IMG/VR virus record: IMGVR_UViG_2882837327_000001
Location: 21,907 to 85,906 of that record
Strand: one strand, 5' to 3'
DNA length: 64,000 bases
DNA from: a virus
Taxonomy: Duplodnaviria; Caudoviricetes
Shown: piece after piece, positions 3,239 to 62,674 of the stretch
Numbering within the stretch: position 1 is the stretch's first letter
Layout: each line of letters begins with the position of its first letter
The notes under the pieces: model-generated
What the model was told of the DNA's origin: nothing
Seen by the model: only the letters and a program-made list of their open reading frames with translations
The model's database searches: none
Position numbers and translations under genes: made by a program

Positions 3239-3285
3239 GGGTGATTCGCTGCTCGGCAGGTCTGGATCGATGGCACGCGCGTCAT

Positions 3286-3309
3286 GCACCAGCTTTAGGG
3301 TCACGACGC
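3286..3309 (-). promoter_or_regulatory. Late-promoter motif copy 1 (GTCGTGAC at 3300-3307; ATG of a 16-codon uORF 14 nt downstream)
   Basis: Minus strand GCGTCGTGAC CCTAAAGCTGGTGC ATG. Confidence 0.7.
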
Positions 3310-3339
3310 CCCGGGCGGGATGCCGCAGCGCCGCGGCCA

Positions 3340-5232
3340 TCACAGCTTCACCATGACGTTGAGGGCGATCGAGGGCTGGACGTTGGGGTGTGCCTCGTTC
3401 CCGCCGGCGGCGGCGATGGTGTGCCTGTGCGCTGGGGCCGCGCTGACCGTCGCCGTGTGGGCGTGCACCCCGCCGACAGAGACGGTGATGGAGTGGGTGT
3501 GCGCGCCGGCGTTGCCCAGGGTGATCTGATGGGCGTGCTTCCCGGCGGTGCTGGTGCGCGACCACTGATAGACATCGTAGTAGATGCCGCTGACCGGGCT
3601 ATAGTTCCAGTTGCGCGGCCCAATCAGGATGCCACCGCCGTGCATGTCATACATGCCCTCATGGCCATCGGTGTGCCAATGGTCGCCGTCCTGGCTGCAG
3701 GCTGCCGAGTGCACATGGGTGCCGGCGCTGCCGGTGGAAGCGTCGTGCGCATGCCCGCCGCCTTCCGAAACGGTGACGGTGTGGTCATGGGCGCCGGCGG
3801 CTCCTGTCTCGGCCCCGTGGTCGTGCTGCGGCATCTGGGCGTAGGTCAGCACATGGGTTTCGGTGCCGAAGGTGCTGCCCAGAGCGCGCGCGGTCAGGCC
3901 GGTGCCCTGCCCTGCCCCCACCACCGCGCGGCCGCGCATGTCGGGGAGGGTGATGCGCTTGCCGGCGGTGAAGTCGGCTGCCGCGCTGGCGCCGCGCCCG
4001 CCCACCACCGGGGCCTGGGCATCGGCCAGGTTGTTCCAGAGCAGAGTGAAGAGGTCGGCCGTATCCGCGTTGGCTCGGGCCGTGCCGCTGGAAGCGGCGT
4101 TGCCGATGGTGCCGCCGGTCAGCATCAGCCAGCCGGGATCCGCCGCGGCCTTCAGGGTTAGCTTGGTGTCGCCGGTGGTGTAGACCGCCTGCCCGGCCAG
4201 CAGGGCACGCACCCATTCGGTGGTGACGAGCTCGGTGTTGTTGGCCGAGGGGCTGGGGGTAACGGCGGTGCTGGTGCCGCGCAGCGCCACGCCTTCCAGC
4301 TCGGTCGGGCTGCCCGCCACGCTGCTGCCATCGGTCCAGATGAGGCGGCTGCGGCCGCTGGTGACGGCCACGCCCCCGCTCTGGCCGGCGGTTCGCACGG
4401 TGACGGTCTGGGTGCTGCCGTTCAGCAGGATCCAGTCGGCGGCTTCGCCCGGCAGGATGAGCGTGGTGGCGGCGCCAGGCGAGCCCGTCAGGGAGATGAT
4501 GGGCCCGGTCAGTGCGGTATCAGCCGGGGTGATCGTGCCGCCGGCGGACACGTCGATCTCGGCGCGCCCCCTGCCCCACTGCCGCGCGAAGGCGGTGGTG
4601 GCGAGCTGGGTGGTGGCGGTGCCGGCCGGCGCCGTAGGCGCGGTAGGGGTGCCGGTCAGAGAGAGATTCCGGGCCTCGGTGGTGGTCGGCAGCATGTCGG
4701 TGCCGTCGCACCAAACCTGCTGGGATTTTCCCTGAGCCAGCAGCACACCGCCACCGCCTGCCGCGCGGAAGGTGACGGTGAAGCCGCCCGTGGTGCGGTT
4801 GGTGACGGTCCAGCGCCCATTGGCAGCCGGCACGCTTACGGTTGCGTCGCCCGTGAGGTTGCCTGTCAGGATGATGGCGCTCTTGCCGGCCTCGATCGCC
4901 GTCAGCGCGGTGTTGCCTGCGGCGATATTCTTCGTGGTCTGCCCGCGGATCAGACCCTGCACCCATTCGGTGGTGGCCAGGCGGCGCGTGCTGTCGCCGT
5001 CCGCCGGCGTGACCGCCATGGCCGAGCCGGTGAAGTCCGGGCTGTTCAGCGGAGCCTTGGTCGGCAGCGCCTCTTCCAGCGTATCCACATGAGCCTTGAG
5101 GTAGGCGGTGCGGTTGGCCAGGTTCAGGAGCGGCGTGTTCGACGGGCCTTCCGGGCCGCCCAGCACCGGGGTGGTGGTTTCAAGCTGGAAGACGCCGGGC
5201 GCCCAGACGGCAGTTTCGGTCAGGTTGCTCAT
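3340..5232 (-). CDS. Tail fibre 2 with tail-collar domain and HxH metal-binding needle tip
   Basis: N-terminal anchor shared with fibre 1; collar motif YTTGDTKL...DPGWLMLTG; LPDMRGR; nine HxH motifs; ends NVQPSIALNVMVKL. Confidence 0.9.
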   Translation of the reverse strand: MSNLTETAVWAPGVFQLETTTPVLGGPEGPSNTPLLNLANRTAYLKAHVDTLEEALPTKAPLNSPDFTGSAMAVTPADGDSTRRLATTEWVQGLIRGQTTKNIAAGNTALTAIEAGKSAIILTGNLTGDATVSVPAANGRWTVTNRTTGGFTVTFRAAGGGGVLLAQGKSQQVWCDGTDMLPTTTEARNLSLTGTPTAPTAPAGTATTQLATTAFARQWGRGRAEIDVSAGGTITPADTALTGPIISLTGSPGAATTLILPGEAADWILLNGSTQTVTVRTAGQSGGVAVTSGRSRLIWTDGSSVAGSPTELEGVALRGTSTAVTPSPSANNTELVTTEWVRALLAGQAVYTTGDTKLTLKAAADPGWLMLTGGTIGNAASSGTARANADTADLFTLLWNNLADAQAPVVGGRGASAAADFTAGKRITLPDMRGRAVVGAGQGTGLTARALGSTFGTETHVLTYAQMPQHDHGAETGAAGAHDHTVTVSEGGGHAHDASTGSAGTHVHSAACSQDGDHWHTDGHEGMYDMHGGGILIGPRNWNYSPVSGIYYDVYQWSRTSTAGKHAHQITLGNAGAHTHSITVSVGGVHAHTATVSAAPAHRHTIAAAGGNEAHPNVQPSIALNVMVKL

Positions 5233-7776: not shown

Positions 7777-8232
7777 TCAGTTGTAGGTGATGGTCCAGGT
7801 GCCGCTGAAGCTGAGATCCGAGGCCTTGACCAAGGCGCCCGTGCGCACCCGCCGCGCGAACAGCGTGTCGTTGTTGCAGATCAGCCCGAACTCGATGATC
7901 GAGAGGCCATTGCCCTCGCCGGTGCCCAGCGTGAAGGCGAACTGCACGCTGTTCCACGCGGGATAGGTCACGCCCGACAGGGCCTTCTTGAAGGCGTTGG
8001 TCAGGCCGGAATTGCTGGCGTCAGCCGCGCCACTGCCTTCGCCGAAGCCGATTTGCGTGATCGAGCGGCCGACGACATCCCCGCCGATCAGCCGGGCCTG
8101 CTGCGTCCGCGCGCCGTTGACGATGATGTTGGGATGGTCATCCACCTCCACCAGCACGCCGCGGCGCCGCACTTCGAGGCGGAAATGGCCACGCGGGCCA
8201 GGAACGGGTTCGGAGAGGGCAAGGCTCGTCAT
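7777..8232 (-). CDS. Baseplate/fibre-attachment protein
   Basis: HPNIIVNGA...IGFGEG...GEGNGLSIIEFGL...LFARR pattern; lies between wedge and fibres. Confidence 0.75.
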   Translation of the reverse strand: MTSLALSEPVPGPRGHFRLEVRRRGVLVEVDDHPNIIVNGARTQQARLIGGDVVGRSITQIGFGEGSGAADASNSGLTNAFKKALSGVTYPAWNSVQFAFTLGTGEGNGLSIIEFGLICNNDTLFARRVRTGALVKASDLSFSGTWTITYN

Positions 8233-8254
8233 GCCGGCAGGGTGCCGTCACGAC
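8233..8254 (-). promoter_or_regulatory. Late-promoter motif copy 2 (8247-8254; ATG 8232 at 14 nt)
   Basis: TGTCGTGAC GGC A CCC T GCCGGC ATG. Confidence 0.8.
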
Positions 8255-11152: not shown

Positions 11153-12369
11153 GCTGCCTCGCTGGCGATGCTCGCCCCGTCCTGCACATCGGTAAGGGCG
11201 TCTTCGAGCTGGTTGTCGTTCAGCGGGTGCAGCACCGGATCCGAACTGGCGAGGGTGATGATGCCGGCGCGAGCGGCAGGGCTCAGCGAGATCCCGAGCG
11301 TCGAAGCCTCTGGGTTGGAGAGGCTTTCCCAGGCGCTGCTGGTGGTGAAGATGCTGGCCGGCCGGCCACCGCTGATGGAGGAACAGCCGGAGGCCCCGTA
11401 GAACCCGGCATAATCCCCATAGGCCAGGCGCGTGGAGCGGGCGCGAAGCAGCCAGCACAGCAGGTTGCTGAAGGCGCTGGCGGTGGCCATGACATCGTTC
11501 CTGATGGCCATGGGGAGGCTGACCACGGCGCCGATGGTGTGGAAGAGGTTCACCCCTGCCTGCGCCAGCATGGTCGGCACCGCCAGAACGGACGCCACCA
11601 GGTTGCGCACGCTGCGCACCACGCCCACCACCGCGGTGAACACCCGGTTCGCGAGGTTCAAGAAGTTGCGCACGGGCGCGATGAGGTTGGTCTGCACCCA
11701 TGCGCTGGCGCGTGTGATCGCGGATCGCACCGCGCTGATGGACTGCACCACGGAGCTGAAGAAGCCGCCCTCCTCGCCTGGCGTCTTCGTGGCGTCGCCG
11801 CCCTGCAGGAACTGGATCTGCCCGGCGTTCTGGTCCACCACGGTCAGGTTGAGCTGATACTGGATCAGCAGCGGCCGCGACTTCGAGCGGCGGAGCGTCA
11901 GCGTCATCGGCGCCACCTCCACCACGAAATCCGACAGGGCATCGGTGTAGATCAGCTTGACGGTGGAGGGGTCGCGGCCCTCCTGGACGGCCTGCTTGCG
12001 CAAGCTCGCCCAGCGGTTCCACACCTGGTCGCGAAGCGCCACCCACCGCTCTTCGCCGTTGCCGTCGCTGCCGCCGCGCCAGCCGGTGTGGCCTGCGATG
12101 TTGATGACGGGCAGCCCCTGACCGAAGCTATCCACGAAGGCGCCGCCGAGCGTGTGGTGCACGGTGGTGCGCATCTGGTCGGTGCGGGTCATATCCTCGG
12201 GCCGCAGGCCCAGGGTCACGCTGCTGACGATCGCGCCATTGTCTTCAAGGGTGAAGCCGATGGGGCGGTTCTTCTGCGAAGGCGGTGGGCCGGCATAGCC
12301 AAGCGCACCGGAGACCGCCCCGATGGCGCTGCTTACGCTATTGGCCGCATCTGAGAGGGATCCCGACAT
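11149..12369 (-). CDS. Baseplate/tail-tube initiator-type structural protein
   Basis: 406 aa; HHTLGGAFVDSFGQGLPVINIAGHTGW pattern; lies between spike and wedge. Confidence 0.7.
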   Translation of the reverse strand: MSGSLSDAANSVSSAIGAVSGALGYAGPPPSQKNRPIGFTLEDNGAIVSSVTLGLRPEDMTRTDQMRTTVHHTLGGAFVDSFGQGLPVINIAGHTGWRGGSDGNGEERWVALRDQVWNRWASLRKQAVQEGRDPSTVKLIYTDALSDFVVEVAPMTLTLRRSKSRPLLIQYQLNLTVVDQNAGQIQFLQGGDATKTPGEEGGFFSSVVQSISAVRSAITRASAWVQTNLIAPVRNFLNLANRVFTAVVGVVRSVRNLVASVLAVPTMLAQAGVNLFHTIGAVVSLPMAIRNDVMATASAFSNLLCWLLRARSTRLAYGDYAGFYGASGCSSISGGRPASIFTTSSAWESLSNPEASTLGISLSPAARAGIITLASSDPVLHPLNDNQLEDALTDVQDGASIASEAA

Positions 12370-12719
12370 ACCGCCAGGGTGGCGTCACGACGCGCCAGGG
12401 GGTTCACCCCAGCAGGGATCGGGCTCTGCCGCCGCCCGCGGCTGGCGGCTATGAAGGCTTCCAGGTCGCGGGCAGTCGCGTGGAAGGTGGCGAGCTCGAC
12501 ATCTGAGAGCCCCGTGGATTCCTGGTCCAGGCCTTCAAGCGCGCGGCGGAACCGTGCGGCGATGCCCTGGACGGTGGTGGCCGGGGTCTCCACGATCCGG
12601 CATTCCAGCTCTATCAGCTCGTCGGCACTCAGGTGCGGTGCCCCTTCGGCTTGCTCTTGGTCCATGGCAAGCAGCGCGAGAACCGGATCTGCAACGCAGT
12701 CGGCGGCGGTCAGGCTCAT
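12333..12719 (-). CDS. Hypothetical protein of the inserted moron (alternative start 12806)
   Basis: ADPVLALLA...LECRIVETPATTVQGIAARFR resembles small alphaproteobacterial phage proteins. Confidence 0.55.
   Translation of the reverse strand: MSLTAADCVADPVLALLAMDQEQAEGAPHLSADELIELECRIVETPATTVQGIAARFRRALEGLDQESTGLSDVELATFHATARDLEAFIAASRGRRQSPIPAGVNPLARRDATLAVCRDPSQMRPIA
12370..12393 (-). promoter_or_regulatory. Late-promoter motif copy 3 (12384-12391; ATG 12369 at 14 nt)
   Basis: GCGTCGTGAC GCC A CCC T GGCGGT ATG. Confidence 0.8.
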
Positions 12720-22893: not shown

Positions 22894-22920
22894 TGCCCCG
22901 CCAGGGTGTCGTCACGACGC
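22894..22920 (-). promoter_or_regulatory. Late-promoter motif copy 4 (22911-22918; ATG 22893 at 17 nt)
   Basis: GCGTCGTGAC GAC A CCC T GGCGGGGCA ATG. Confidence 0.8.
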
Positions 22921-25794: not shown

Positions 25795-25824
25795 GGGCGG
25801 GATCTCCGGAAGGAAGGGTCAGGA

Positions 25825-25848
25825 GCGCCCATGCTGGCGTCACGACGC
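25825..25848 (-). promoter_or_regulatory. Late-promoter motif copy 5 (25839-25846), leadered, with an SD/AUG-sequestering hairpin at 25791-25834
   Basis: GCGTCGTGAC GCC A GCA T; GCATGGGCG pairs with CGCCCATGC. Confidence 0.8.
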
Positions 25849-29378: not shown

Positions 29379-29389
29379 GAACCCCCTCG

Positions 29390-39484: not shown

Positions 39485-39522
39485 TCGTTCCTTTGGCGCT
39501 CTTGGGGAAGGCTTTGCCGCGT

Positions 39523-39939: not shown

Positions 39940-39958
39940 GTTTGTGCTCCTCAGCAGC

Positions 39959-42103: not shown

Positions 42104-42287
42104 GGGCGGCCTCGCACTCGAAGACATAGGCGCCACGAGCCATGCGGATCCGGCCACCGGCATCGGCGCCCAGCACCCGCACCATCTCGGTGCAAGCGGC
42201 CATGGTGCGGTATTCAGCGTGGCTGCCCAGCAGCTCGGGCCGGCCGCTGCCGGCGGCGATGAAGTAGACGAGAAGCCAGACCGTCAT
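42096..42287 (-). CDS. Small hypothetical protein
   Basis: 63 aa overlapping neighbours in the operon. Confidence 0.55.
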   Translation of the reverse strand: MTVWLLVYFIAAGSGRPELLGSHAEYRTMAACTEMVRVLGADAGGRIRMARGAYVFECEAAHG

Positions 42288-44578: not shown

Positions 44579-44928
44579 ATCCGGATCATGTCGCCGTCCG
44601 GCGTCTCCACCCAATCCTGGTGGCGGGCCAGCCGGGCGGCATATTGGTAATGGGCCAGGCCTTCGGCCAGCACCTGGCCCGGTTCCAGCGGCCGCGGCAG
44701 CGTCGCCAGCGCCTCGGAATCCATGTAGTGCCGGAGCATCGGCAGGTTGGGCCCATACCCTGCTCCCAGCAGCAGCACCTTGATGGGCCACCACCACACC
44801 CCGAACCAGCGGTAGCGCAGCACCTGGCCCTGCAGGTCGCGGGCGATGTTGCCCAGCACCTCCGGCACACCATCGGCAGGAATCGGCGCCACGGTTTCGG
44901 GCGGGGTGTTCGTCAGCGCGTCGAGCAT
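44554..44928 (-). CDS. Hypothetical protein coupled to the DarB-like gene
   Basis: Start overlaps the DarB-like stop; 124 aa. Confidence 0.75.
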   Translation of the reverse strand: MLDALTNTPPETVAPIPADGVPEVLGNIARDLQGQVLRYRWFGVWWWPIKVLLLGAGYGPNLPMLRHYMDSEALATLPRPLEPGQVLAEGLAHYQYAARLARHQDWVETPDGDMIRIYDADIET

Positions 44929-50900: not shown

Positions 50901-51032
50901 CCGATGGCTTGCATGCGGGGCGACGAACACGCCCTTCTTGCTCAGGTAGCCCCCAACCATCACGGGGCTGTTGAGCAGGTCGCCAGCGGCGCCGCCCGGG
51001 ATGATGGCCTTCAGGAAGAGGATCACTGGCAT
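44928..51032 (-). CDS. 2034-aa DarB-like protein: N6-adenine methyltransferase plus SNF2 helicase
   Basis: NEYYTP, VLEPSAGAG, IGNPPF (MTase); ADVGVGKT, MDEAH, QRNGRGLRQGN (SF2). Confidence 0.9.
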   Translation of the reverse strand: MPVILFLKAIIPGGAAGDLLNSPVMVGGYLSKKGVFVAPHASHRRKRIATIETHRPVAQPDLFAPAPAALTQPPVQQQLTLDPPPMEAPAATEPPPAADPMLAEAGFILHLDAEKTQQVLDAALAARTLDWSASDSGRARVRVAIKRALGSVAPEISATTVHELAGDVTAMLARQEENATDAGPAEPAAAPARGAVHAEVAVLHPEVPPQAEIYRPAAWGMPAGVKAKARIKANKEAEAILAAKADDAMTDGDRDRLARYTGWGGQGVGTSPNEYYTPRDVAQAAWSLVRKLGFTGGAVLEPSAGAGVFQHTAPGDAQITAVELSTDSGRVNRILHGARDEVVTDSFEGFATYDPRRFDLVIGNPPFGARNAFRQQDVTKTDITRAEQYFLDTALDKAKDGGLVALVLPSGVLDASSARAFRERILAKGQVMAAFRLPNTAFADSQTEVTTDLLVMRKRPQALAGALGALNTQQQAALPHWDPDFVAGRYMTEGAGAAHVMGTLEPGWRAKAGIGDDITVSGSMDGVAEHIAAWQPPTDSLADNTPSMAAILAAAGDDAARVERAADRAPYPERHEGDTLVRDGIMYVLRGGRWHRAEQDIPAVVQDALQVGELLDGVLRGDAAGTALARVNLIEALDDFVGKHGAPGRNRELLDWTSQPQLPTGGADAGDHAQRTAAAAKQVAQLLGAVGSDGSYSDAVMGTSRAQHAPLAAVATELAGREGQFSIEQLAQAAGRADAEGVEEELFADPAFAMLPDQPGQWTSRDQYLSGALWPKYDAARAAAGDEGRVGPERARLQRQADELHQAIAPKDLGDVENIELGSPFVSHAAIEAWLNATHPNDGPWEILDDRGAIQVRGRYRGYGERPNDELLAAVLMRRGVRKDEAAQVDRLQAGFREWLLTDETWRAATEERYNRDFRGFVPRAYSEEPIPVPGLSPDFSVNAYHWAGVRRLLDDGRGICAADVGVGKTPRGLLLNAMLRATGRAKKPAIVVPKSLLANWVKAQQAMFPDARILAIGETLVTKKDGTVTSREDDEQTRRRKLAELKQNDFDFVFITLPTWNRINLDEARQKRWEDEDFYTQRREALDEAKEKKARKLKDRHEGKVAASKFVATGERNITLEDTGIDAVLMDEAHSMKNLASPEAGQFQELKFLGAPGTPSKQAVATEHKFRWIRENAANGGNVYMLTATPTKNSPLEIYSMIRHIAPEAWTSIGINNPDDFVDRFVERETDTILSANGQAVEATVVTGFRNMDEVRGIATRWIHRQTAADVGLKIPLPEMQQHMVEMDPAQAEAYAVLRPKLEQALAQRDAEGSDHPFSVISDMQKAATDMRLLHPGGEHAPSPKMRDIAENVARLAANGGQIVFSDYVDAHGMMRDALVAGGMDPKRIGIINAQVTPTSTSRQRVADAFNAGHLDVVIGNTATMGEGLNLQETTSDIHHADTPWEPASVIQRNGRGLRQGNTRETVGLHTYLTKGSFDGYRWQSMAAKGDWQTAFWGGGDRLDNMQRGSLGRLEMLIMASADPAAAREKFATQLEDAKARRAAGESIKAVQTWARYRDTMRQIEAMRLKRDRKNAYRYGAAPKVEEGETEKGMRLRAKRLKASLAANPAFLHGDVLDADPSSVAIDHRSGRVWRPGQEVEIQPGGKFNTMSKEPEAYVVQAVDDVGGTVSLLPAGYATLDGADRFARTVEISKLRDGVSDTKVDRDAAYERQAARDKAAAEAAEAARRAAQEAQASEERRAAASKAEGILNGTAHGHAADLAAMGDDWLQQHGEALHSRLIESQRSGRAGYATHAVMTDAGGKPYVVSAYQATKAPADHRVALPTTALRDKLLAQEEEHRLTSPLRNHYRPVPRTRSGQTEYAGAKRDNPAGTDILLNDSPSSIAIRNLWPKQAPELLAGVADRADRRAADAVRAAPSWRDAVRNAAGGLSARDSVMPGMNIGSMRPHTLAALHDAAERHGVLDRGVDTALPATRGDDSTLSAMRRVLSGAGGYYVSSVGKTLKDALRTAHPGHPETIRIAGSVLDDPRKAA

Positions 51033-51056
51033 CTGCCAATGGTCGCGTCACGACAC
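51033..51056 (-). promoter_or_regulatory. Late-promoter motif copy 11 (51047-51054; ATG 51032 at 14 nt)
   Basis: GTGTCGTGAC GCG A CCA T TGGCAG ATG. Confidence 0.8.
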
Positions 51057-51928: not shown

Positions 51929-53123
51929 AAGTCGCTGCTGGATCGGGCTTGGCGGTGGTGACAGCCACCTTGGCCAACTCGCCATTGAGCCAGGCCATGA
52001 ACGCGGGATCCACACCCGCCGGCTTCGCCTCCGGCACATAGGTCCACGATCCCCGACAATGCGGGTGCTGCACGCCGGCGGCCACCCACCACCGCTCATC
52101 GGGCGAGCGCTCCACCATCACCCCGCCATCACGGCGTTTCGAGCTCGCCCTACGGCGGGCGTTGGTCTTCCCGACCCACACGTCGCTGTTGCCGTTCCGC
52201 TTCGGGTCGCCGGGCGCGACCACGCGGAACGTCTTGCCGTTGATGGATTTGCAGAAATCGCAGGCGCCCCGGTAGGCCTCGACGCGCCGCACCTTCGCCC
52301 CGAGGGGCTGGCCCGCGATGAAGCCGGTGTTGTGCGCCTCGCCGATCTCCGTGACCGCGATGCGGCGCCAGTCCCTGTTGAGCTGGCCGAACTCATCGAA
52401 CAGGGCACTGCGCAGATACTCCGGCGTGCCGCCCTGCTCGCCCAGCACCTGCATCTGAAGCCGTTCCAGCAGCACCGCCTTGATGCGCTTGCGCGTGTCG
52501 TCGGCGAGATCCGAGATGAACATGGCGGCACGCGCGGCCGCGATGTCCAGGATAGCGGATTCCACTCCGGTCAGCACCTTCGGCGGCAGGTCGCGCCGGC
52601 GCATCGGAAGCGCTGAAGCGATCGCCGCGGCGCCGGGGTTCGGCCTGGCGCTGCGGTCCATGGCGGCCTTGATCTTGCCCAGCAGCGCGGCCCGCACTGC
52701 CATGAAGTCCGCCATGCTGGTGATGACGCCTTCGGGCAGGTATTCGGCCAGCAGCAGGTCAGCCAGGTCCATCCAATCGCCGATACCGAAGTGGGCTGGC
52801 CCCTTGGCTTCCAGGCGCGCCCGCACCACGTCCAGCCGGGCCTGGCGCATGTCTTCCCAATCGGCGGCCTTCCGCAGCGCGCCGAGCGGCTTTCCACCCA
52901 TATAGGCGATCAGCTCATCCTGGATGGCCTGCAGGATGCGCTGCATCCATGCCGTCACGTCCTCGATGTGCTGGGCGATGAAGGGATCATGGTGGCGCTC
53001 CCAGATGGATGCATCGCCATCGCCGCGAGGATCGACGGCCATCGCCTTGAACAGGCCCTCGATGCAGTCGTTGCAGTGCGCTTCCGGGACCGCGCCGATG
53101 TCCAGCAGCAGGGGGCCAGTCAC
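51927..53123 (-). CDS. Head morphogenesis protein (Mu gpF/SPP1 gp7-like)
   Basis: RDWRRIAVTE; CDFC; HPHCRGSW. Confidence 0.85.
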   Translation of the reverse strand: MTGPLLLDIGAVPEAHCNDCIEGLFKAMAVDPRGDGDASIWERHHDPFIAQHIEDVTAWMQRILQAIQDELIAYMGGKPLGALRKAADWEDMRQARLDVVRARLEAKGPAHFGIGDWMDLADLLLAEYLPEGVITSMADFMAVRAALLGKIKAAMDRSARPNPGAAAIASALPMRRRDLPPKVLTGVESAILDIAAARAAMFISDLADDTRKRIKAVLLERLQMQVLGEQGGTPEYLRSALFDEFGQLNRDWRRIAVTEIGEAHNTGFIAGQPLGAKVRRVEAYRGACDFCKSINGKTFRVVAPGDPKRNGNSDVWVGKTNARRRASSKRRDGGVMVERSPDERWWVAAGVQHPHCRGSWTYVPEAKPAGVDPAFMAWLNGELAKVAVTTAKPDPAAT

Positions 53124-55030
53124 GGACGGCCCCAGCTCTTCAGGAAGAAGAGGGCCCGCCCTGGCCAGCCGCCTTTTTGGAAGCGAGGAGATCCTGCAGG
53201 TACTTGGGCAGCTTGGCCGTTGGTGTCCGAACGGGCGGCCGGCAGTCCTGGCTGTCCATCTTTTCCAGCATTTCCGCCGTCAGCTTGCTTTTCACGAGTT
53301 TGGTTGTCGCGTTCATTTTTGGGGCTCTCCGCAATTAGGGTGGGGCCGCTCCCGTCGCGGTTCTGATTATCGCGGAAGCTCCACGCATCCGCAATATCCT
53401 TCACCTGGTCGAACGCGGCTTCGTTCTGGGTGTTGCCCAAGATGACCGTGGGCGGGACATAGCGGCCAGTCGGGCCGAGGAAGCGTTTCACCGCACGCTT
53501 CGCTGCTTCAGCGCGCGGCAGGTGCATGTAATGAGCCTCCACGCGGTATCCGCCATCCTTGAATGCCTGGGCCAGCGCGACGGCCTTCTTGGGGGTCTTC
53601 ATGGTCGCGTCGTGGACAATGTTCAGCCCGAGATCCTGAGCCACCTGCGTGATCTGGTCGAACAGGTCGCCGGATTCCTCGTGGACCTGATAGGCATTCC
53701 ACCCCTCGTATTCGGGCAGCATGTGCTTGATCTCGTCGGCGTCCAGCACGATGGCCTTGGTCGGATCGTAGACTTTCCCGCTGAACCAGGATTTGCCTGA
53801 GCCACCGCGACCGCCCAGGATGGTGAAAGTCGGCTTCTCGCCAGCCGCAGGCGTGGCGGCAGCGATCTTCTCGGGTGAAAGGAAGTGCGCCACGATCTTA
53901 CCGTGGAGCTCCTTACGCTCCGGCGTGTAATCGCCGTCCTTGTAGTGCTGGGTCTTCGTCTCAGTGACCCCGGCCAGTTTGTTGTCGATGGCCGCCATCT
54001 TGCTGGCGGTATCAGGCGGGAAATTGGCCAGCACCGAATGCACCGTCGCATCGTCCGGCGCGTCGAACTTCGCGAAGTGCCCGGCAGCCGAGAAGCCCGC
54101 ACCACCCTTCGGATCGGCGCCAGCAGAGCCGGGCCGGTGGTCAGGGTAGTCCAGCTTGTCAGGATCGAGGGGCTTACCCTTCCCGTCCTTCTTCCCATCA
54201 TCGCCGCCGTCATTGCCGCCACCGCCACCGCCGCCGCCAGCGGCCGGCTTCGGCTTATCCAGCGCGTCATGAGTGACCTGGTGTGTCTGCCCAGCGGCAT
54301 CACGCAGGGTTACGCCATCCTTCCCGGAGGAGACGATCTTACCTTCGCCTCGCACGTCGCCGTGCTGAAAGCCCACGCTGTCGCCGATCTTATGGTGCGG
54401 CGCATTGGTGAAGTCTTCCAGGTCGGTCTGCCGAGGGTCATGGATCACCCCCTCATCCTGCTGGCCAGGCTTGCGTGGCTGTTTCGCGTCCGGCGCGCTG
54501 CGCACCCATCGCTTGGTCTGGTGCCCTGCCTTGTCGGTGGTGTCGCGCAGCGCCAGCCCGGGCCTGTTGGCAATGCCGGCCTTCAGGAACATCACCTGCT
54601 TCCCGCCACTCAGCGCCTTGGCCAGGCGATCGAGGCCGTCCATCAGCGGGTCAGCGATTGGGTGTGCAGGATTCGCCGCCGGCGCAGCGGCGTTGCCTCC
54701 CGCATCACCCGCGAGAAACCTGCGCCTGCCCTTATCGTCCTGCACGATGGAACCCTCTTGCCCCTTGTCGATAACGTCGAAATTCATCGCCACCCGGCTC
54801 TTGTGGCCAAGCATCGCGTTCCAGCGCAGCGGATGGCGCTTTCCATCAGCAGCCTCGCCGGTGAAGCCATCACGGCCATGCGCCAGCACGCGCACAGCCA
54901 TCGGCCCGCGCTCGGGGTGGTGCGCGTAAACTTCGTCGCCCACCTCCACGGTGCTGGCGCGCGGGTCGGGCTTCACGGTGGCGGCAGGTTTCCGCGGCTG
55001 CGCGCCAGCCTGGCGTGCGCCTGCCATCAC
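53120..55030 (-). CDS. Multidomain protein: two SH3/Tudor-like modules plus zeta-toxin-like P-loop kinase
   Basis: GGRGGSGKS; LDADEIK; IVHDATM; GGYRVEAHYMH; AVKRFLGPTGRYVP. Confidence 0.85.
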   Translation of the reverse strand: MMAGARQAGAQPRKPAATVKPDPRASTVEVGDEVYAHHPERGPMAVRVLAHGRDGFTGEAADGKRHPLRWNAMLGHKSRVAMNFDVIDKGQEGSIVQDDKGRRRFLAGDAGGNAAAPAANPAHPIADPLMDGLDRLAKALSGGKQVMFLKAGIANRPGLALRDTTDKAGHQTKRWVRSAPDAKQPRKPGQQDEGVIHDPRQTDLEDFTNAPHHKIGDSVGFQHGDVRGEGKIVSSGKDGVTLRDAAGQTHQVTHDALDKPKPAAGGGGGGGGNDGGDDGKKDGKGKPLDPDKLDYPDHRPGSAGADPKGGAGFSAAGHFAKFDAPDDATVHSVLANFPPDTASKMAAIDNKLAGVTETKTQHYKDGDYTPERKELHGKIVAHFLSPEKIAAATPAAGEKPTFTILGGRGGSGKSWFSGKVYDPTKAIVLDADEIKHMLPEYEGWNAYQVHEESGDLFDQITQVAQDLGLNIVHDATMKTPKKAVALAQAFKDGGYRVEAHYMHLPRAEAAKRAVKRFLGPTGRYVPPTVILGNTQNEAAFDQVKDIADAWSFRDNQNRDGSGPTLIAESPKNERDNQTREKQADGGNAGKDGQPGLPAARSDTNGQAAQVPAGSPRFQKGGWPGRALFFLKSWGRP

Positions 55031-56787
55031 TCGCCCCCGATCTGGTAGATCAGCGGGATGGACTTGCCGAAGTCACGGCCTTCGCCTGGCTGGCCGAAGT
55101 CGCCACCGCCAGGCGGCGGAGCATCCATGCTAGCCGGCTTGGCATCCATGCTATCCGCCCCCACCACCGCATCATCGTCCAGGCCGGGACTGCCGTTGTG
55201 ACCAGGGCCAGGGCCTTCGGCATCCGGGTCGCCGAAATCGCCTCCGCCACCGCCGAAATCGTCACCCTGGCCGGGCTGTTGTTGCAGCGTTCCCTGGTAG
55301 ACGGTCATCAGGGCGGGGTTCAGCGGTGCGGCGCCCAGCTTCGGATCCGGGTGCACGCCTAGGCCCTGCTCGGCGCGCAATTCATCGACGGTCATGGTCA
55401 GCTTCTTGCCTTCCCACTCCCGCGCCTGGTCGCGCTCATCGAGGCCAATCCAGCGGAAGCAGTATTTGTCGCTGAAGTCGGTGACGACGAAATCGGTCAG
55501 TGTCTGCTCGAAGTAGCTCAGCAGCGGGCGCAGGCCCTTGTCCTTCGAGGCGGCCAGCTTCTCGGTGGTGTCGCTGCCGGAGAGCGAGGAGCTGCCGTTG
55601 GTGAAGCTCTCGAAATTGATCTCGTCTGGCGCCATGCCATAGATCGCGCAGATGAGGCTGGTCAGGAAGGTCATCCACTTCGAGAAATACATCTCGTTGA
55701 ACTCGACGCCGAACCGCTCGAAGCTGGCCTTGCCGTCCGGATCCTTGTTGACCATCACGGGCAGGCCGAAGGCGTTTTTCGCCCCGGTGGTCATCTGCTT
55801 CCAGTAGCGCTTGAAGGCCGCCAGCTCGGCGTCACCGTAGTCGCCCACCAGGTGGAGCATGCCGCGCGGGATGCTGTTCTGCTCGAAGCCCGCGATGTTC
55901 AGCGTCATCGCGTTCAGGAAGCCGGTGACGGTCTGCACCAGCACCTCGGTCTCGCTGAAGCCGTAGCCGCCATACCGGACATCGGCGCAAGCGTTGCGCG
56001 GTTCGTAAATCAGCGCGTCGGGCTGGTAGGCGGTGGTGACGCGCCCGTTGACCACCTGGACCGCCACCGCGTCCGGATACTCGGGGTGCCCGTCATCGGT
56101 GCAGAGGCGGATGGTGCTGCCGTCGAGCGCATAGAGGCCGTCGATGCCGAGGCTCCGATCGCGCTTCATCTCCGTCTCGATCGCGGCCGCGTCCATGGCC
56201 AGGGTGTCGAAGACGAGCTTGCCCATGAAGGTGGGGAAGTTGTCCCGCTTCAGCGCCTTGCGCTTCCGAGGGCTCCACTCGAATCCGCAATGCTGGAAGA
56301 AGCGCGTCAGGCGCGCGATCGAGGCCTCTTCCTCCGGCGCCAGCTCGTGCTTCGGGTCCACATGACGGATCGCGAAGCCCAGGCCGCCATCCTCGGAAGG
56401 GCTGCAGAAGCGCGCGACCTGGCGCTGGCGCGTCCACACCACGGCGGAGAGGACGGGGGTGCGACGCACCATGTCGCGCATGGTCTCGGGGGAAAGCAGG
56501 CCCGGCCGGTCGTAGTAGCCGCCCTGCAACGCCAGTTGGAGGTCATCGCGATCAAGCGACTGCATCCCGCGCCGCTCGGGCATGTGGACGCGGGTGCCCG
56601 GGAACGGGATGACGTTCTGCGCCTTCAGCAAGTCGAGGGATTCGCGGATCTGGTCCACCACTTCAGGTGAGAACAGGTCGCCGGCGGCCGGCATGCTGGC
56701 CCGGGTTAGCTGCGTCTCCGCATCCCGAACCTCCATGGCGGGGGCGCGGGGATCGGTCGCGACACTGCGGGCATCATCGGAAGACAT
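55027..56787 (-). CDS. Portal protein
   Basis: LYALDGSTIR; YGGYGFSETE; NSIPRGML; MTVDELRAEQG. Confidence 0.92.
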   Translation of the reverse strand: MSSDDARSVATDPRAPAMEVRDAETQLTRASMPAAGDLFSPEVVDQIRESLDLLKAQNVIPFPGTRVHMPERRGMQSLDRDDLQLALQGGYYDRPGLLSPETMRDMVRRTPVLSAVVWTRQRQVARFCSPSEDGGLGFAIRHVDPKHELAPEEEASIARLTRFFQHCGFEWSPRKRKALKRDNFPTFMGKLVFDTLAMDAAAIETEMKRDRSLGIDGLYALDGSTIRLCTDDGHPEYPDAVAVQVVNGRVTTAYQPDALIYEPRNACADVRYGGYGFSETEVLVQTVTGFLNAMTLNIAGFEQNSIPRGMLHLVGDYGDAELAAFKRYWKQMTTGAKNAFGLPVMVNKDPDGKASFERFGVEFNEMYFSKWMTFLTSLICAIYGMAPDEINFESFTNGSSSLSGSDTTEKLAASKDKGLRPLLSYFEQTLTDFVVTDFSDKYCFRWIGLDERDQAREWEGKKLTMTVDELRAEQGLGVHPDPKLGAAPLNPALMTVYQGTLQQQPGQGDDFGGGGGDFGDPDAEGPGPGHNGSPGLDDDAVVGADSMDAKPASMDAPPPGGGDFGQPGEGRDFGKSIPLIYQIGGE

Positions 56788-56811
56788 GACCCCAGCGTCG
56801 CGTCACGACGC
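56788..56811 (-). promoter_or_regulatory. Late-promoter motif copy 12 (56802-56809; ATG 56787 at 14 nt); supplies the TerL stop
   Basis: GCGTCGTGAC GCG A CGC T GGGGTC ATG. Confidence 0.8.
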
Positions 56812-58848
56812 CGGGATGTATGCGAAGCAGGCGGGCGCATTCGCCTGCGTTCTGAACTCGCGCGCCGTGCAGTGCCCATCCCGGAACGCCTCGCACGCAC
56901 CGCAGGTGTTCGGCGCCGCCTCCTCGATCATGGCCTGGATGCTGGGCGGCAAGCCGGGCGTGTCCAGCAAGCTGGTCTGCTCGGGCGGCTTAAGCGGATC
57001 CGGCGCGCCATTCTCCAGGAGCATGAAGGTGGTGCCGCCGCCGTTGCGGATCCAGGCGATGTCGCACAGCATGTTGGCGAAGCTGAAGTGCGGGTCGAGC
57101 CCCACCTTCTGCACCTTGCCCACGGGCTTCCGGGTCTTTTCGTCCTGTTCCATCACCAGCGCCGTCTTGGTGAAGTGGTCGAACACCCAATCCTGGCAGA
57201 TAGGGATGCGGTGCTCGCCCTTGGTGTCCTGGACCATCTGTTCCAGCGCCGCTGGATCCGGGAACAGGCAGCCGCCGTCACGGAGGCGGAACAGGGCCAT
57301 CTGCATGGCCTTGTACTGCTGGATGGTGACGGTCCACCGGCTGCGGTCGCTCTCGGCCGTCCGGCGATCGCTCTTCGTGAGATCGTCACCCCAGACCAGC
57401 ATGTCGTCGCGAAGGTTCGCATAGCCGGCGAGATAGACGCGGCGCGGGAACCTGGCGGCCAGCTTTCGGGCCTCGTTGGCATTCGGGAGCTGTTCGATAA
57501 CGCAGAGCTGGACGCCATACTGGTCCATGAGCTCGGCGGTGCGCCCGAAGGCCTCGTTGCCGAACACCGCCTCCACATGCAGCACCCCCTGGCGGCCATC
57601 GGGCAGCCGGCCCTTGATGATGTGGACGTTGAAGCCGCCCATCTGGTCCACGCCCATGAAGGTGCCGCGTCCAGACTTCTGCCAGGTCAGCCCCATCTCC
57701 ATGCCCTTTCGGGCGGCCTCACGCAGGTGGGCCAGGGTGACGGGGAGCTGATCGGCGTCGATGTAGGGCCGCGCCAGCGTGCGGTTGTAGAAGCTCTTCT
57801 TCTGGTCGCCCGTCTTCGCCCGGTTGAAGTCCGTCACCAGGTCGCGGGCGGTCATCTTCGGGCTGATGGTGCGCGGAAGGAGGAAGCTGCGCACGCCGGT
57901 CAGCGCCAGGTTGCCGGGCTGCTGCGGAATGTAGCGCCCGATTTGGGCATCTCGGATCCAAGCCCGGCAGCGCGGGCAGACATAGACGAACTCGTTGTGG
58001 GGGGCGTGCGCCACCTGGCCGGTGTTGTAGGCGGTGGATTTGCCCGGGAAGATCCCGCCCGGGTCGGAAAGGTCGCTTTCCTCGCCGCATTCCAGGCAGC
58101 GGGTGTGCCACACCTCCTGGTTGCCTTGCAGATACCAGTAGTTGATGTCCAGCTCCGGCTGGTTGGCGGTGCTGAGCATGAGGGTGAACCGGAGATCGCT
58201 GTCGCCCATGCGGGCGATCACCTTGTCGATGTGGGCCAGGGCCATCTCCTGCACCTCATCGAGGCTCACGATGTCCATGGGCCGGCTCTCGGTGGTCACA
58301 CGGCCACTGGTCCAGAGGAACATCAGAAGCGATTCACCGAATTGGCGGGTCAGAACGTTGCCCTCGCCGATCTTCTTCTTGCTGCCGTCCACCTCCTGGC
58401 GGGTGATCAGCCGCTCATAGAGCATCGGCGCCGAGCGAAGGATGGCCATAAAGCGCTGCTCGGATTTGAAGCCGGCGGTGGACTGGTCGGGCATGAACAT
58501 GCCGATGTTCACCGGGCTGAACTTGAGGCTCATGTAGAGCTGGGCCAGCACCTCCCACACCGTCAGGCCAAGCTGCGTCGCCTTCTGGATCACCAGCTTC
58601 TGCTTGAAGGCCTCGGCGCGGGTGGTGGGGATGGCCTCATAGATCGGGCGCAGCGCGGGCCGATCGGCCAGGCTGAACGGGCGCCGATCGACCTTCAGGC
58701 CCTTCGAGCCAAGATCCTCCACCCACTGGATGAAGGTCATCTCCTCGGGGATGGATCCCGTCTGCGCGTAGCCCTTCTCGGCGGCGAACAGGGCCAGCCG
58801 CCGCGAGAACTGCTGAATAGCCTGGTCGGCAATGCTGGTGCGGGCCAT
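56803..58848 (-). CDS. terL: Terminase large subunit (GpA-like)
   Basis: QKATQLGLT (Walker A variant), VSLDEVQ (Walker B), LSTA, GVDQMG (RNase H fold), DPHFSFA. Confidence 0.92.
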   Translation of the reverse strand: MARTSIADQAIQQFSRRLALFAAEKGYAQTGSIPEEMTFIQWVEDLGSKGLKVDRRPFSLADRPALRPIYEAIPTTRAEAFKQKLVIQKATQLGLTVWEVLAQLYMSLKFSPVNIGMFMPDQSTAGFKSEQRFMAILRSAPMLYERLITRQEVDGSKKKIGEGNVLTRQFGESLLMFLWTSGRVTTESRPMDIVSLDEVQEMALAHIDKVIARMGDSDLRFTLMLSTANQPELDINYWYLQGNQEVWHTRCLECGEESDLSDPGGIFPGKSTAYNTGQVAHAPHNEFVYVCPRCRAWIRDAQIGRYIPQQPGNLALTGVRSFLLPRTISPKMTARDLVTDFNRAKTGDQKKSFYNRTLARPYIDADQLPVTLAHLREAARKGMEMGLTWQKSGRGTFMGVDQMGGFNVHIIKGRLPDGRQGVLHVEAVFGNEAFGRTAELMDQYGVQLCVIEQLPNANEARKLAARFPRRVYLAGYANLRDDMLVWGDDLTKSDRRTAESDRSRWTVTIQQYKAMQMALFRLRDGGCLFPDPAALEQMVQDTKGEHRIPICQDWVFDHFTKTALVMEQDEKTRKPVGKVQKVGLDPHFSFANMLCDIAWIRNGGGTTFMLLENGAPDPLKPPEQTSLLDTPGLPPSIQAMIEEAAPNTCGACEAFRDGHCTAREFRTQANAPACFAYIPAS

Positions 58849-61113: not shown

Positions 61114-61232
61114 CCGAAGGAATATCCCTCATGCTCATGGAGGAATACGCCGGCATCCTCCACGCCGCAAGATAAGATCTCCCCCCACATGGAGGTTCTG
61201 CAATCCTACACTTATGAAGGATTTGGACGAAT
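61114..61232. promoter_or_regulatory. Operator-like cluster D upstream of the terminase operon
   Basis: CCGAAGG-AATAT-CCCTCAT (61114), ATGGAGG-AATAC (61137), CCTCCAC (61157), ATGGAGG (61189), ATGAAGG-ATTTG-GACGAAT (61214). Confidence 0.7.
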
Positions 61233-61790
61233 GCGAACGGCGGTCGAAGTGGTCTGGACGTTACTCGTACTGCCCAGGCTGCTCCCTAGAAAGAAGTTAA
61301 CGGTATTGTTGTAGCCACCGATGGTCGCGCCCAGGATCACGTTGACCAGTGCCACCATGATGGAATCCGCACTCAGCATGATCGCCGTCACGCTGCCGGT
61401 GGCGGAGAGGATGAACACCACGATGGTGCTGATGGCCACGGTATCTCGCATGCGCGTGCTGCCACCCGCACGGACCACCTCCACGTCACGCGACCGGGCA
61501 TCAGCGGTGTTCTGAGCCTCGATCTCCAAGGTGGCGTTGCGCTGCTTCGCCAGCTCCACCTCATTCTCGGCCAGCACCCGCTGAAGCTGAACCCGAAGCT
61601 CCGTCACCGCGCCGGGATTGGTGTCCAGGAAGCGCTGCGCCTCGGCCGGGTCGCTGCTGCCGACAACCTGCTGCACCACGCCGGTCAGGCTCTCGGCCAC
61701 CGCGGCGCCGCGCTCGCCGGCTATCAGCTTGCCGATCCACTCGGCGGCCGAGGGCAGCACTCCCATAAGGAGCGGAAGGAGAGCGAACAT
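61212..61790 (-). CDS. Holin-like membrane protein
   Basis: Follows the endolysin; TM segments and FFLGSSLGS tail typical of 3TM holins. Confidence 0.75.
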   Translation of the reverse strand: MFALLPLLMGVLPSAAEWIGKLIAGERGAAVAESLTGVVQQVVGSSDPAEAQRFLDTNPGAVTELRVQLQRVLAENEVELAKQRNATLEIEAQNTADARSRDVEVVRAGGSTRMRDTVAISTIVVFILSATGSVTAIMLSADSIMVALVNVILGATIGGYNNTVNFFLGSSLGSTSNVQTTSTAVRIRPNPS

Positions 61791-62650
61791 CAGGAGGCCT
61801 CCCCATTAAGCGCGCGCCAGGTGGCTGGCCCGACCACGCCATCCGGGCGCAGGCCCTTGGACTGCTGGAACCGGACCACGGCGGCTTCGGTGGCGCGCCC
61901 GAAGATCCCGTCGATCTGAAGGTGGGACACGCCCAGCTTCGTCTGCACCAGGCGCACCAGCTCGCCCCGGTCGCCCACCTTCAGCATGTCGAAGACGGTG
62001 GTGGCTGCCTGCACGCTGGGCACGGTGTGTTCCGCAGCTTCGCTGATGACGAACCGTTCGTAGGCGCTTTCCAGCTTCTCGTCGTAGCGGTTCACCGCGT
62101 AGCTGGGCCCGTTGTAAGCACGGGCGAAGGCCGCCCAATCCTTGTCGCGGAGCGCGGTGGTCAGCCGATTGGCCTTCACGAATGAGCAGAAGGCCAGCAG
62201 GTGCTCACGCTCGCCCTTCAGCATCGAGGCGACAAAGACCTCCACGGAGGTGAAGCCGGCGGCCTGGAAGTTGCTGCCCAGGATCTGGAACAGACCCCAG
62301 CTCGCGGCGGACAGCGCGGCGCGGCGATCGAGCTCCACGGCGCGCAGCAGCCGGGTGTATTCGGCGGCGCCACCCAGGTAGAGGCCGGTGGTCCAGCTCG
62401 CGCGGCTGATGTCCGGATGTGAGACATTGAAGCGTCCACCGGTCAGCCGGCCGAAGATGTGGGCCTCGAACAGGATCCGGGGGCGCTTGCTGCCATCGGT
62501 CAGGAAGCCGCCGGCGCCGCCGGTCTCAACGGTCAGCACGGCCCGGATCGTCGCCAGGTCCGTCCCGAGGGTGGCAGCGGCCGCTTCGATGTCGGCCCGC
62601 GCCATGGGCGCTGCCGCGCCGGAGAGGGTGAGGAGGGTGCTGTCTGACAT
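61790..62650 (-). CDS. Endolysin: N-acetylmuramidase (DUF3380-like) plus C-terminal peptidoglycan-binding domain
   Basis: VETGG; ILFEAH; SASWGLFQILGSN; FARAYNGP; GDRGELV...DGIFGRAT...FQ...DGVVGPATW. Confidence 0.93.
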   Translation of the reverse strand: MSDSTLLTLSGAAAPMARADIEAAAATLGTDLATIRAVLTVETGGAGGFLTDGSKRPRILFEAHIFGRLTGGRFNVSHPDISRASWTTGLYLGGAAEYTRLLRAVELDRRAALSAASWGLFQILGSNFQAAGFTSVEVFVASMLKGEREHLLAFCSFVKANRLTTALRDKDWAAFARAYNGPSYAVNRYDEKLESAYERFVISEAAEHTVPSVQAATTVFDMLKVGDRGELVRLVQTKLGVSHLQIDGIFGRATEAAVVRFQQSKGLRPDGVVGPATWRALNGEAS

Positions 62651-62674
62651 GGCGGCAGGGTGTCGTCACGACAG
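62651..62674 (-). promoter_or_regulatory. Late-promoter motif copy 13 (62665-62672; ATG 62650 at 14 nt)
   Basis: CTGTCGTGAC GAC A CCC T GCCGCC ATG. Confidence 0.8.

Follow-up and report, generated by a model that had tools for sequence, protein, structure and literature searches.

The 64,000-nt stretch of viral DNA analysed here (hereafter the window; positions 21907–85906 of viral record IMGVR_UViG_2882837327_000001; 67% GC) covers most of a ~90-kb PHB04-like myovirus prophage, essentially all of whose genes lie on the minus strand. We find that this prophage and 12 related phages carry a promoter-like motif, GTCGTGAC followed by 2 nt and a −10-like hexamer nAnnnT, and that at these motif sites the DNA just upstream of the predicted transcription start (+1) is complementary to the early transcript clearly in excess of chimeras made by swapping promoters and genes. 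The resulting hairpins, which straddle +1, are a real statistical tendency and not a universal feature. In phage T4, early read-through transcripts of e, soc, 49 and I-TevI carry a hairpin that silences the start region, and late-promoter transcripts are free of it (PMC3014915); the original prediction for this DNA quoted this precedent correctly. A T4-like gate on the translation of read-through RNA is the best explanation that we can offer for the hairpins, most clearly at promoters followed by a leader, and we put its probability somewhat below even.

The geometry of the GTCGTGAC unit supports its behaving as a compact promoter. The window holds 14 copies of GTCGTGAC against 1.66 expected, all 14 on the minus (coding) strand; 13 of them immediately precede a start or sit where two genes meet, and one is intragenic. 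The longer pattern GTCGTGAC-N14-ATG has 9 copies in the whole 5.3-Mb genome, 8 of them inside the prophage. The motif is likewise restricted to the coding strand in the relatives examined, which include metagenomic ones with ~60% capsid identity, and its counts in isolated phages (coding/other strand) are 11/0 (PHB04), 10/1 (Dolphis), 9/0 (Touem01), 7/0 (Jeremy), 4/0 (fHe-Yen8-01), 4/0 (ECML-606-1) and 3/0 (ST4). Morganella phage Mecenats66 (OL614104.1; 42% capsid identity) has neither GTCGTGAC nor a relaxed pattern on either strand and may use a diverged promoter. Among 80 copies from 13 genomes, the hexamer has A at position 2 in 75 and T at position 6 in 70, and it nears TATAAT in the less GC-rich phages (AATAAT, TAGAAT, CACTAT and CACAAT). 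The start codon of a real open reading frame (ORF; ATG, once GTG) follows the GAC of the motif by 13–17 nt at 38 sites and by exactly 14 nt at 26; taken as +1, this ATG lies 5–9 nt after the hexamer in the 38 and 6 nt after it in the 26, the spacing of a sigma-70-type −10 element. At the 38 sites, which we denote leaderless-geometry sites, the A of the start codon would therefore fall on the +1 predicted from the −10 element, ~7 nt past the hexamer. The original prediction had proposed just such a compact promoter with +1 on the A of ATG, and this geometry fits at most sites. A core Shine–Dalgarno (SD) sequence is present at 2 of the 38, compared with 14 of 35 non-motif starts and 14 of the 27 motif sites that have a leader (leadered sites). 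Given the hexamer signature, the distance to the ATG and the rarity of SD sequences, we accept the motif, on geometric grounds, as a compact promoter that is often set for predicted leaderless mRNA.

The promoter also overlaps the end of the preceding cistron, since the TGA within GTCGTGAC terminates the upstream reading frame at 31855–31857 and 29500–29502 (minus strand) and is in frame with the downstream ATG at all 14-nt sites. That the 8-mer is invariant in phages whose hosts belong to different classes suggests a reader encoded by the phages themselves. The prophage contig encodes no Sigma70_r2 domain, ten proteins scanned with Pfam (mostly small and encoded near the terminase gene) returned no DNA-binding family, and we found no literature on the motif or on transcription in these phages.

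The evidence for straddling complementarity comes from 65 motif sites in 13 genomes, namely the window, seven metagenomic relatives (L002–L009) and five isolated phages; 27 of the sites are leadered and 38 have leaderless geometry. Each site was cut at the predicted +1, and pairing between the real promoter half and transcript half was compared with that of all swapped combinations. Cross-pairing at the leadered sites of the window and metagenomes (n = 12) averages −10.7 kcal/mol against −6.3 kcal/mol for the chimeras (p = 5e-5), and the isolates, an independent replicate (n = 15), give −10.75 against −5.37 kcal/mol (p < 5e-5). When the leadered sites are pooled, bases −6 to −1 are paired with the transcript at 0.71 compared with 0.39 in chimeras (p < 5e-5). 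On the transcript side, pairing with upstream sequence reaches 0.40 compared with 0.26 for the region from the SD to AUG+5 (p = 1e-4), 0.48 compared with 0.29 for the AUG itself (p = 8e-4) and 0.27 compared with 0.23 for the rest of the transcript (p = 0.03). Leaderless-geometry sites (n = 38) show a smaller excess in cross-pairing (−7.9 against −5.8 kcal/mol, p < 1e-4), which falls on +4 to +15 (0.36 paired with upstream sequence compared with 0.25, p = 4e-4). Both classes retain the excess when permutation is restricted to within genomes (leadered, −11.15 against −6.42, p < 5e-5; leaderless, −7.79 against −5.79, p = 3e-4), and the eight leaderless sites of the window give p = 0.04 by themselves. 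The same test at non-motif starts and random cuts yields differences of +0.28 to −0.57 kcal/mol, none significant. Burial of SD and AUG in the manner of T4, as originally proposed for all of these promoters, is thus predicted for leadered sites, where SD and AUG are the preferred partners, and not for the AUG of the leaderless class as a whole.

Dinucleotide shuffles of RNA starting from the predicted +1 are more structured than the RNA itself (z = +0.38 leadered, +0.55 leaderless), and extending this RNA upstream by 12 nt (leadered) or 22 nt (leaderless) lowers z to −1.62 and −0.94, respectively. The 5′ arms end at about +1 to +4, with +1 predicted 7 nt after the hexamer, and it is across this boundary that z at leadered sites passes from −1.62 to +0.38. 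Anti-SD-like CUCC or CCUC lies within −6 to +6 at 7 of the 27 leadered sites, compared with a 5.5% background (p = 5e-4), and at each of the three leadered sites of the window. The stems themselves are of unrelated sequence: CCUCCGU/ACGGAGG in PHB04, UCCGGGGCUG/CAGCCCCGGA in the metagenomic relative L009 and UUCUCCUGA/UCAGGAGA in ECML-606-1, with those of Dolphis and ST4 beginning within the hexamer. We rejected the idea that the stems are protein-binding inverted repeats, as what recurs between sites is complementarity and not sequence, and also that they are hairpin promoters of the N4 type, as many motif sites have no hairpin.

In the model that we favour, the phage family would have its own compact promoter (GTCGTGAC, 2 nt, hexamer nAnnnT), and at roughly half of the promoters the untranscribed core (mainly −12 to −1, reaching ~+4) would be complementary to the early transcript, its partner being the SD/AUG region at leadered promoters and codons 2–5 where ATG sits at +1. 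With its 5′ arm in the untranscribed core, the hairpin could form only in RNA arriving from an upstream promoter. In such read-through RNA the ribosome-loading site of the motif-headed gene would be buried; RNA begun at the gene's own promoter would lack the 5′ arm and keep its start region open, so that translation would depend on the firing of that promoter. At leaderless sites, the stem on codons 2–5 would add to the silence expected of an internal AUG without an SD. The position of +1, the read-through RNA itself and the effect on translation are the parts of this model that we infer. Indirect evidence for such read-through lies in the gene arrangement: the genes run in one direction, and in many cases the motif touches or overlaps the preceding stop codon, leaving no terminator between them. 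A wider claim, possible and somewhat less probable than the gate itself, is that a design of expression not described before is common to the PHB04-like myoviruses that infect alpha-, beta- and gammaproteobacteria, in which a phage-specific 16-bp promoter makes leaderless or short-leader mRNAs and about half of the cores double as a blocking 5′ arm (for translation and, in a few cases, transcription), each such cistron being expressed only through its own promoter. Insulation at the level of translation would then be a principle that recurs throughout the genome, not a device of single genes.

The proposed arrangement resembles that of T4 e, soc, 49 and I-TevI in that the hairpin would bury the SD, the AUG or both, the 5′ arm is encoded by DNA that contains the promoter, and translation is predicted only for RNA begun at that promoter; in the window, sites 30538, 25846 and 31861 (named by the upper coordinate of the motif) match the T4 anatomy closely. 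It differs in several respects. The prophage promoter consists of GTCGTGAC and a −10-like hexamer, whereas the T4 late promoter is TATAAATA, used with gp55. T4 gates a few genes, whereas here the arrangement is found at many promoters per genome, in phages of alpha-, beta- and gammaproteobacteria. Half of the promoters are predicted to be leaderless, with the stem on codons 2–5 rather than on the AUG, and the main source of read-through would be promoters of this same class farther upstream. Finally, the T4 gate has been shown, whereas that of the prophage family is a computational prediction.

The copies of GTCGTGAC in the window, with their start codons (distance counted from the GAC of the motif) and any associated stem, are as follows.

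62640–62674, minus strand: endolysin site; motif 62665–62672, hexamer CACCCT; ATG 62650 (14 nt); weak 5+4-bp stem.
56758–56809, minus strand: portal site; motif 56802–56809; ATG 56787 (14 nt); 10+3+4-bp stem, −26.6 kcal/mol, reaching +30.
51024–51054, minus strand: DarB-like site; motif 51047–51054; ATG 51032 (14 nt); 7-bp stem of −9 to −3 with +3 to +9.
38466–38490, minus strand: site of the 1788-aa helicase; motif 38483–38490; ATG 38468 (14 nt); 9–10-bp stem.
32757–32797, minus strand: site of a 96-aa gene; motif 32790–32797; ATG 32775 (14 nt); 7-bp stem, GGGAUGG/CCAUCCC.
31821–31861, minus strand: leadered site of a 428-aa gene; motif 31854–31861; ATG 31829 (24 nt); 8–9-bp stem, −14.0 kcal/mol.
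30494–30538, minus strand: leadered site of a 161-aa protein; motif 30531–30538; ATG 30497 (33 nt); 14-bp stem including one G–U, −27.4 kcal/mol.
29376–29506, minus strand: head-protease leader site; motif 29499–29506; ~110-nt conserved leader, SD and ATG 29378.
25791–25846, minus strand: leadered site of an 80-aa gene; motif 25839–25846; ATG 25794 (44 nt); 9+4-bp stem, −21.9 kcal/mol.
22881–22918, minus strand: site of a 281-aa gene; motif 22911–22918; ATG 22893 (17 nt); 7-bp stem with the AUG in the loop.
22247–22254, minus strand: intragenic GTCGTGAC, probably present by chance; the hexamer position reads ATCTCG, which is not −10-like, and no start lies close by.
12369–12391, minus strand: site of a 406-aa virion protein; motif 12384–12391; ATG 12369 (14 nt).
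8228–8254, minus strand: site of a 151-aa gene; motif 8247–8254; ATG 8232 (14 nt); 6+5-bp stem, −14.3 kcal/mol.
3278–3309, minus strand: mini-ORF site; motif 3300–3307; ATG 3285 (14 nt) of a 16-codon ORF; 8+3-bp stem, −16.4 kcal/mol.

The original prediction drew stems at eleven of these sites, and as isolated segments all eleven fold roughly as drawn. Ten were confirmed; the endolysin stem (62640–62674, −8.4 kcal/mol) exceeds neither shuffles (p = 0.19) nor random windows (p = 0.56), its AUG being paired upstream with a probability of 0.58. Only three stems, all at leadered sites, are individually striking (30494–30526, 25791–25834 and 31821–31843); the 5′ arm of each begins within the hexamer or directly behind it. 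The 5′ arm of the first spans −10 to +4 and its 3′ arm covers GGAG and AUG, with a U-rich tail after the stem; the z of −5.3 of its 70-nt window is equalled by no shuffle or random window, and z at the site is −5.3 and −6.8 in the read-through context compared with −0.28 for RNA from +1. The gene behind it (ATG 30497) encodes a 161-aa membrane protein with no Pfam or PHROG match and no known family. At 25791–25834 the 5′ arm (−10 to +3) contains CUCC and the 3′ arm again covers GGAG and AUG (z = −3.1 in read-through context compared with +0.76 from +1), and at 31821–31843 a 5′ arm of about −5 to +4, also with CUCC, faces a 3′ arm over the AUG (z = −2.2 for 70 nt and −2.65 for −12 to AUG+25, compared with −0.05 for RNA from +1).

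The remaining stems are more diverse. At the helicase site (38466–38487), GUGAC of the motif and the spacer pair with the AUG (probability of upstream pairing 0.99), at 8228–8254 the motif pairs with CAUGAC (0.99), and at 3278–3309 the stem covers the first AUG (1.0); together with the three leadered sites 30538, 25846 and 31861, sites 38490, 8254 and 3307 are those at which burial of the T4 type is predicted in the window. The portal stem (56758–56802) competes with a stronger 13-bp hairpin inside the promoter, and its AUG pairs with downstream bases (probability of upstream pairing 0.02). The DarB-like stem (51024–51041, −8.8 kcal/mol; p = 0.01 against random windows, with segment ends chosen by the reader) leaves the A and U of AUG in the loop. 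The stem at 22881–22901 has −12.4 kcal/mol as an isolated segment and is absent from the minimum free energy (MFE) fold of the 70-nt window (probability of AUG pairing 0.10), and site 12391 has no stem on its start codon (z = +0.36). The statement that most of each 5′ arm lies upstream of +1 fails at 32757–32778, where only 3 of 7 arm bases do so, nearly the whole stem being downstream of +1, and the AUG pairs downstream (probability to upstream 0.01). The CGU of the motif can indeed pair with AUG, as had been pointed out, and this capacity is generic: the probability that the AUG pairs with upstream sequence is 0.31 for the real leaderless sites, compared with 0.34 for chimeras and 0.28–0.29 for random positions.

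Because the segment ends had been chosen by the reader, per-segment p values are flattered, and we set them aside as a measure of the drawn stems. In an unbiased test with 70-nt windows centred on the AUG, mean z against shuffles is −1.09 at 12 motif sites, −0.26 at 36 non-motif starts and −0.20 at 60 random windows (Mann–Whitney U test, p = 0.034 against non-motif starts and p = 0.025 against random windows). The folding comparison with shuffles and non-motif starts, proposed with the original prediction, gives modest evidence within the window (p ~0.03). The cost of opening the 28-nt ribosome site in read-through RNA (130-nt context) is 16.7 kcal/mol at motif sites of the window and 13.8 kcal/mol at non-motif starts (p = 0.03); in DNA of 67% GC the baseline of this measure is high, and non-motif starts are the only controls from which it sets motif sites apart.

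Several results weigh against a strict gate. The evidence from the window by itself is weak to modest (p ~0.03), absolute MFEs of motif windows equal those of random windows in this 67% GC DNA, and the opening cost of 16.7 kcal/mol does not differ significantly from the 16.1 kcal/mol of random positions. Strong stems (z ≤ −2.4) are present at 11 of 27 leadered sites (~40%), and to call the gate systematic or genome-wide, as originally proposed, overstated it. In the leaderless class, pairing of the AUG with upstream sequence is no higher than in chimeras (0.31 compared with 0.34, not significant) and its overall pairing is slightly lower (0.54 compared with 0.61); sequestration of the AUG had been claimed for these sites too, and the excess falls on +4 to +15 instead. 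Leaderless genes lack an SD in any case, so the gate may be redundant there. Leadered sites show no purine preference at the predicted +1, which makes +1 uncertain by 2–3 nt, and at site 30538 a start 1–2 nt earlier would keep a 6-bp stem on the SD. Other copies of the promoter, lying upstream, would be the source of much of the read-through, and a rationale of early against late expression is weaker for it; the stems would then insulate cistrons and not switch between the two phases. Where a T-run terminator directly precedes the motif of a leadered site, the straddling stem tends to be weaker (z = −0.33, n = 6) than where there is none (z = −1.83, n = 21; p = 0.08), a difference that fits any role aimed at read-through RNA and that we count against a strict gate. 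Three or four stems of the family carry U-tracts and may be terminators (in PHB04, L021; in Dolphis, L031; and 30526–30494 in the window).

Conservation of individual stems is a further point on this side. At the orthologous site after the capsid gene, the strong window stem is lost in the closest relative (L002, 96% capsid identity) through non-compensatory changes, the stems of L003 and L054 are weak, and that of L009 is strong and built from unrelated arms. As the arms are non-homologous between orthologous sites, there is no classical covariation; the check for covariation across homologous phages proposed with the original prediction turned up decay, not compensation, in L002. The history of the stems, as read from these orthologous sites, is one of repeated gain and loss.

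Among the alternatives, the best placed, and still an unlikely one, is that the stems serve the upstream transcript, as intrinsic terminators, insulators or 3′-end stabilizers that overlap the promoter because intergenic space is nil; RNA initiated at the promoter would escape them only for want of the 5′ arm, and coverage of the ribosome site would result from short leaders. U-tracts follow the stems, as judged by eye, in PHB04 L021 and Dolphis L031 (both straddling +1) and in ST4 L028; the stem at 30526–30494 is flagged as terminator-like, with an interrupted tail, the sole window stem so flagged; the TGA of the motif serves as the upstream stop codon at 31855–31857 and 29500–29502; and the weaker stems behind T-run terminators (p = 0.08) fit any role in blocking read-through. 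Most stems, however, lack the GC stem plus U-tract of an intrinsic terminator, and no U-tract follows most of the strong ones (window 25846 and 31861, L009 6582, PHB04 L011, Dolphis L035 and L046, ST4 L032 and ECML-606-1 L069). The 3′ arms also favour the region from SD to AUG+5 (+0.14 over chimeras) over the rest of the transcript (+0.04), and anti-SD-like CUCC is enriched in the 5′ arm region, both of which speak against this reading.

Slightly less probable is that the stems have no selected function: read-through RNA would go untranslated, its start regions would be unconstrained, and GC-rich DNA together with the near-palindromic motif and its complementarity to AUG would supply stems to the eye. 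Opening costs and absolute MFEs at the level of random positions, leaderless AUG pairing not above chimeras or random positions, fast turnover between close relatives (window and L002), one drawn stem at chance level and window-only evidence of p ~0.03 all agree with this. It predicts complementarity at the level of chimeras, however, and the observed excess is large, replicated (p ≤ 5e-5 in each of two independent sets of leadered sites, p = 3e-4 when leaderless sites are permuted within genomes, and no excess at random cuts or non-motif starts) and position-specific, peaking at −6 to −1.

We consider it improbable that the motif is an RNA-processing signal with cleavage ~15 nt downstream, the hairpin forming part of the substrate and cleavage freeing the start region. 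A signal in RNA would account just as well for the constant distance of 14 nt and for the strict strand specificity, and neither a sigma-factor domain on the prophage contig nor a transcription factor among the small proteins scanned was recognized. Yet the hexamer has a −10 signature (A2 in 75 of 80, T6 in 70 of 80), nears TATAAT in less GC-rich phages and stands at the standard −10-to-+1 distance from the ATG. Least probable of all, and pure inference, is a role at the DNA level, in which the non-template strand of the bubble (−6 to −1) would pair with scrunched downstream DNA (+4 to +15) and tune promoter escape: the leaderless excess does join −12 to −1 with +4 to +15, within the range reached by scrunching and with the AUG in or near the loop, but the 3′ arm of leadered sites lies 15–40 nt downstream, beyond the reach of the bubble.

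Apart from the T4 gate, the motif-headed genes invite comparison with three known systems. Leaderless mRNAs include lambda cI transcribed from PRM and Tn1721 tetR, and in the hosts of these phages leaderless translation is generally held to be inefficient. Like these mRNAs, the leaderless-geometry sites have ATG at the predicted +1 and mostly lack a core SD (absent in 36 of 38); unlike them, predicted leaderless starts would be normal in a single phage for about twelve genes of structure and lysis. Compact phage genomes also contain overlapping arrangements of intrinsic terminators and promoters, in which upstream transcription stops at a GC stem and U-tract at the start of the next unit; three or four sites of the family resemble this, and they differ in that the 5′ arm overlaps the promoter core, so that the promoter's own RNA escapes, and in that most stems lack a U-tract. 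Minimal promoters centred on the −10 region, finally, include T4 late promoters and extended −10 (TGn) promoters. With these the GTCGTGAC unit shares the lack of a recognizable −35 element and the concentration of conserved information within ~16 bp ending at the −10 hexamer; unlike in extended −10 promoters, its 8-mer lies at about −22 to −15, 3 bp upstream of the TGn position. The T4 late promoter is the minimal −10-centred case covered by the source cited above (PMC3014915).

If the gate works, a mechanism seen in four T4 genes would be used repeatedly in a phage group that is widespread and has hardly been studied; its members include both prophages in GC-rich alphaproteobacteria and lytic phages infecting Bordetella, Pseudomonas, Aeromonas, Yersinia, Enterobacter and E. 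coli. The gate would account for the silence of lysis and virion genes in the read-through RNA of co-directional, terminator-poor genomes, and it would tie control of read-through to predicted leaderless translation in hosts thought to be poor at it. The GTCGTGAC unit would also offer a very compact promoter-plus-insulator part. ECML-606-1, which shares the motif and has a stem that clearly masks an SD, is a phage of E. coli and so opens the idea to tests in a standard host.

The motif further pins down start codons missed by annotation. The PHB04 gene at locus 24899 (L010, ~24867–24901) probably starts 9 nt earlier, at an ATG 15 nt after the motif, and at PHB04 12931 a copy of the motif has an ATG 13 nt downstream where no gene is annotated. 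In the window (3235–3285), the TGA of the 16-codon ORF at ATG 3285 overlaps ATG 3238 of a 92-codon ORF. A mini-ORF AUG-UUU-UGA likewise occupies one 14-nt site each in fHe-Yen8-01 (locus L034) and ECML-606-1 (locus L066), with the real start ~20 nt later; mini-ORFs at 14-nt sites suggest leaderless loading followed by re-initiation.

The head-protease leader (29376–29506), which was absent from the stems originally listed, stands apart. The TGA of its motif at 29500–29502 is the stop codon of an Acb1-like gene, and the leader opens with a hairpin that varies, continues with a CAAGGGCUU..AUGAGCCGCC box that is conserved and closes with a long GC stem and T-run just before the SD. It recurs in relatives (L003:8327–8455, L004:8360–8465, L007:8330–8445, L009:3132–3260, L055:42–170 and L056:540–655), and its consensus fold in seven phages has 16 pairs, 4 of them with changes on both sides. 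No Rfam family matches anywhere in the window, this leader included. Candidate roles for it, in front of the protease–scaffold–capsid genes, are those of a transcription attenuator and of a small RNA.

The prophage genes around these sites include the following.

20115–21830, minus strand: tail sheath.
26369–27826, minus strand: major capsid protein.
28494–29378, minus strand: head protease (head maturation protease).
33102–38468, minus strand: helicase protein, 1788 aa.
44928–51032, minus strand: DarB-like methylase/helicase, 2034 aa.
55027–56787, minus strand: portal protein.
56803–58848, minus strand: large terminase.
61790–62650, minus strand: endolysin, 286 aa (PHROG endolysin).

Relatives were obtained through protein-database and contig look-ups and by tblastn against phage records. 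Public data contain ~1000 homologues of the capsid protein, many on contigs of ~90 kb. The nearest isolated phages, which have a gene order in common with the window and 42–49% capsid identity, are Bordetella phage PHB04 (genus Phabquatrovirus), Pseudomonas phages Dolphis, Jeremy and Touem01, Aeromonas phage ST4, Yersinia phage fHe-Yen8-01, Enterobacter phage phiT5282EW and Escherichia phage ECML-606-1. Queries with the capsid protein found no close relatives in 60 kin genomes and none in assembled genome contigs or viral contigs; a search of viral contigs for the motif-plus-ATG pattern was also empty, and phage records contained no megablast match to the DarB-like gene of 6 kb.

Between the portal gene and the giant methylase/helicase gene, a 635-aa protein (53120–55027, minus strand) contains a Zeta-toxin/AAA_33 kinase domain (Pfam, E = 2.7e-24). 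A stretch between the two giant genes (38500–42200) has lower GC (64%), a weaker third-position GC bias and no copy of the motif, and may be an inserted cargo region. Both giant proteins (starts at 51032 and 38468; 2034 and 1788 aa) open with a shared short N-terminal peptide, (M)..P-I-L-F-L-K, which also begins proteins of several relatives (L003:4832, L006:3531 and the PHB04 record at ~25654) and may be a targeting or packaging signal of virion-carried proteins.

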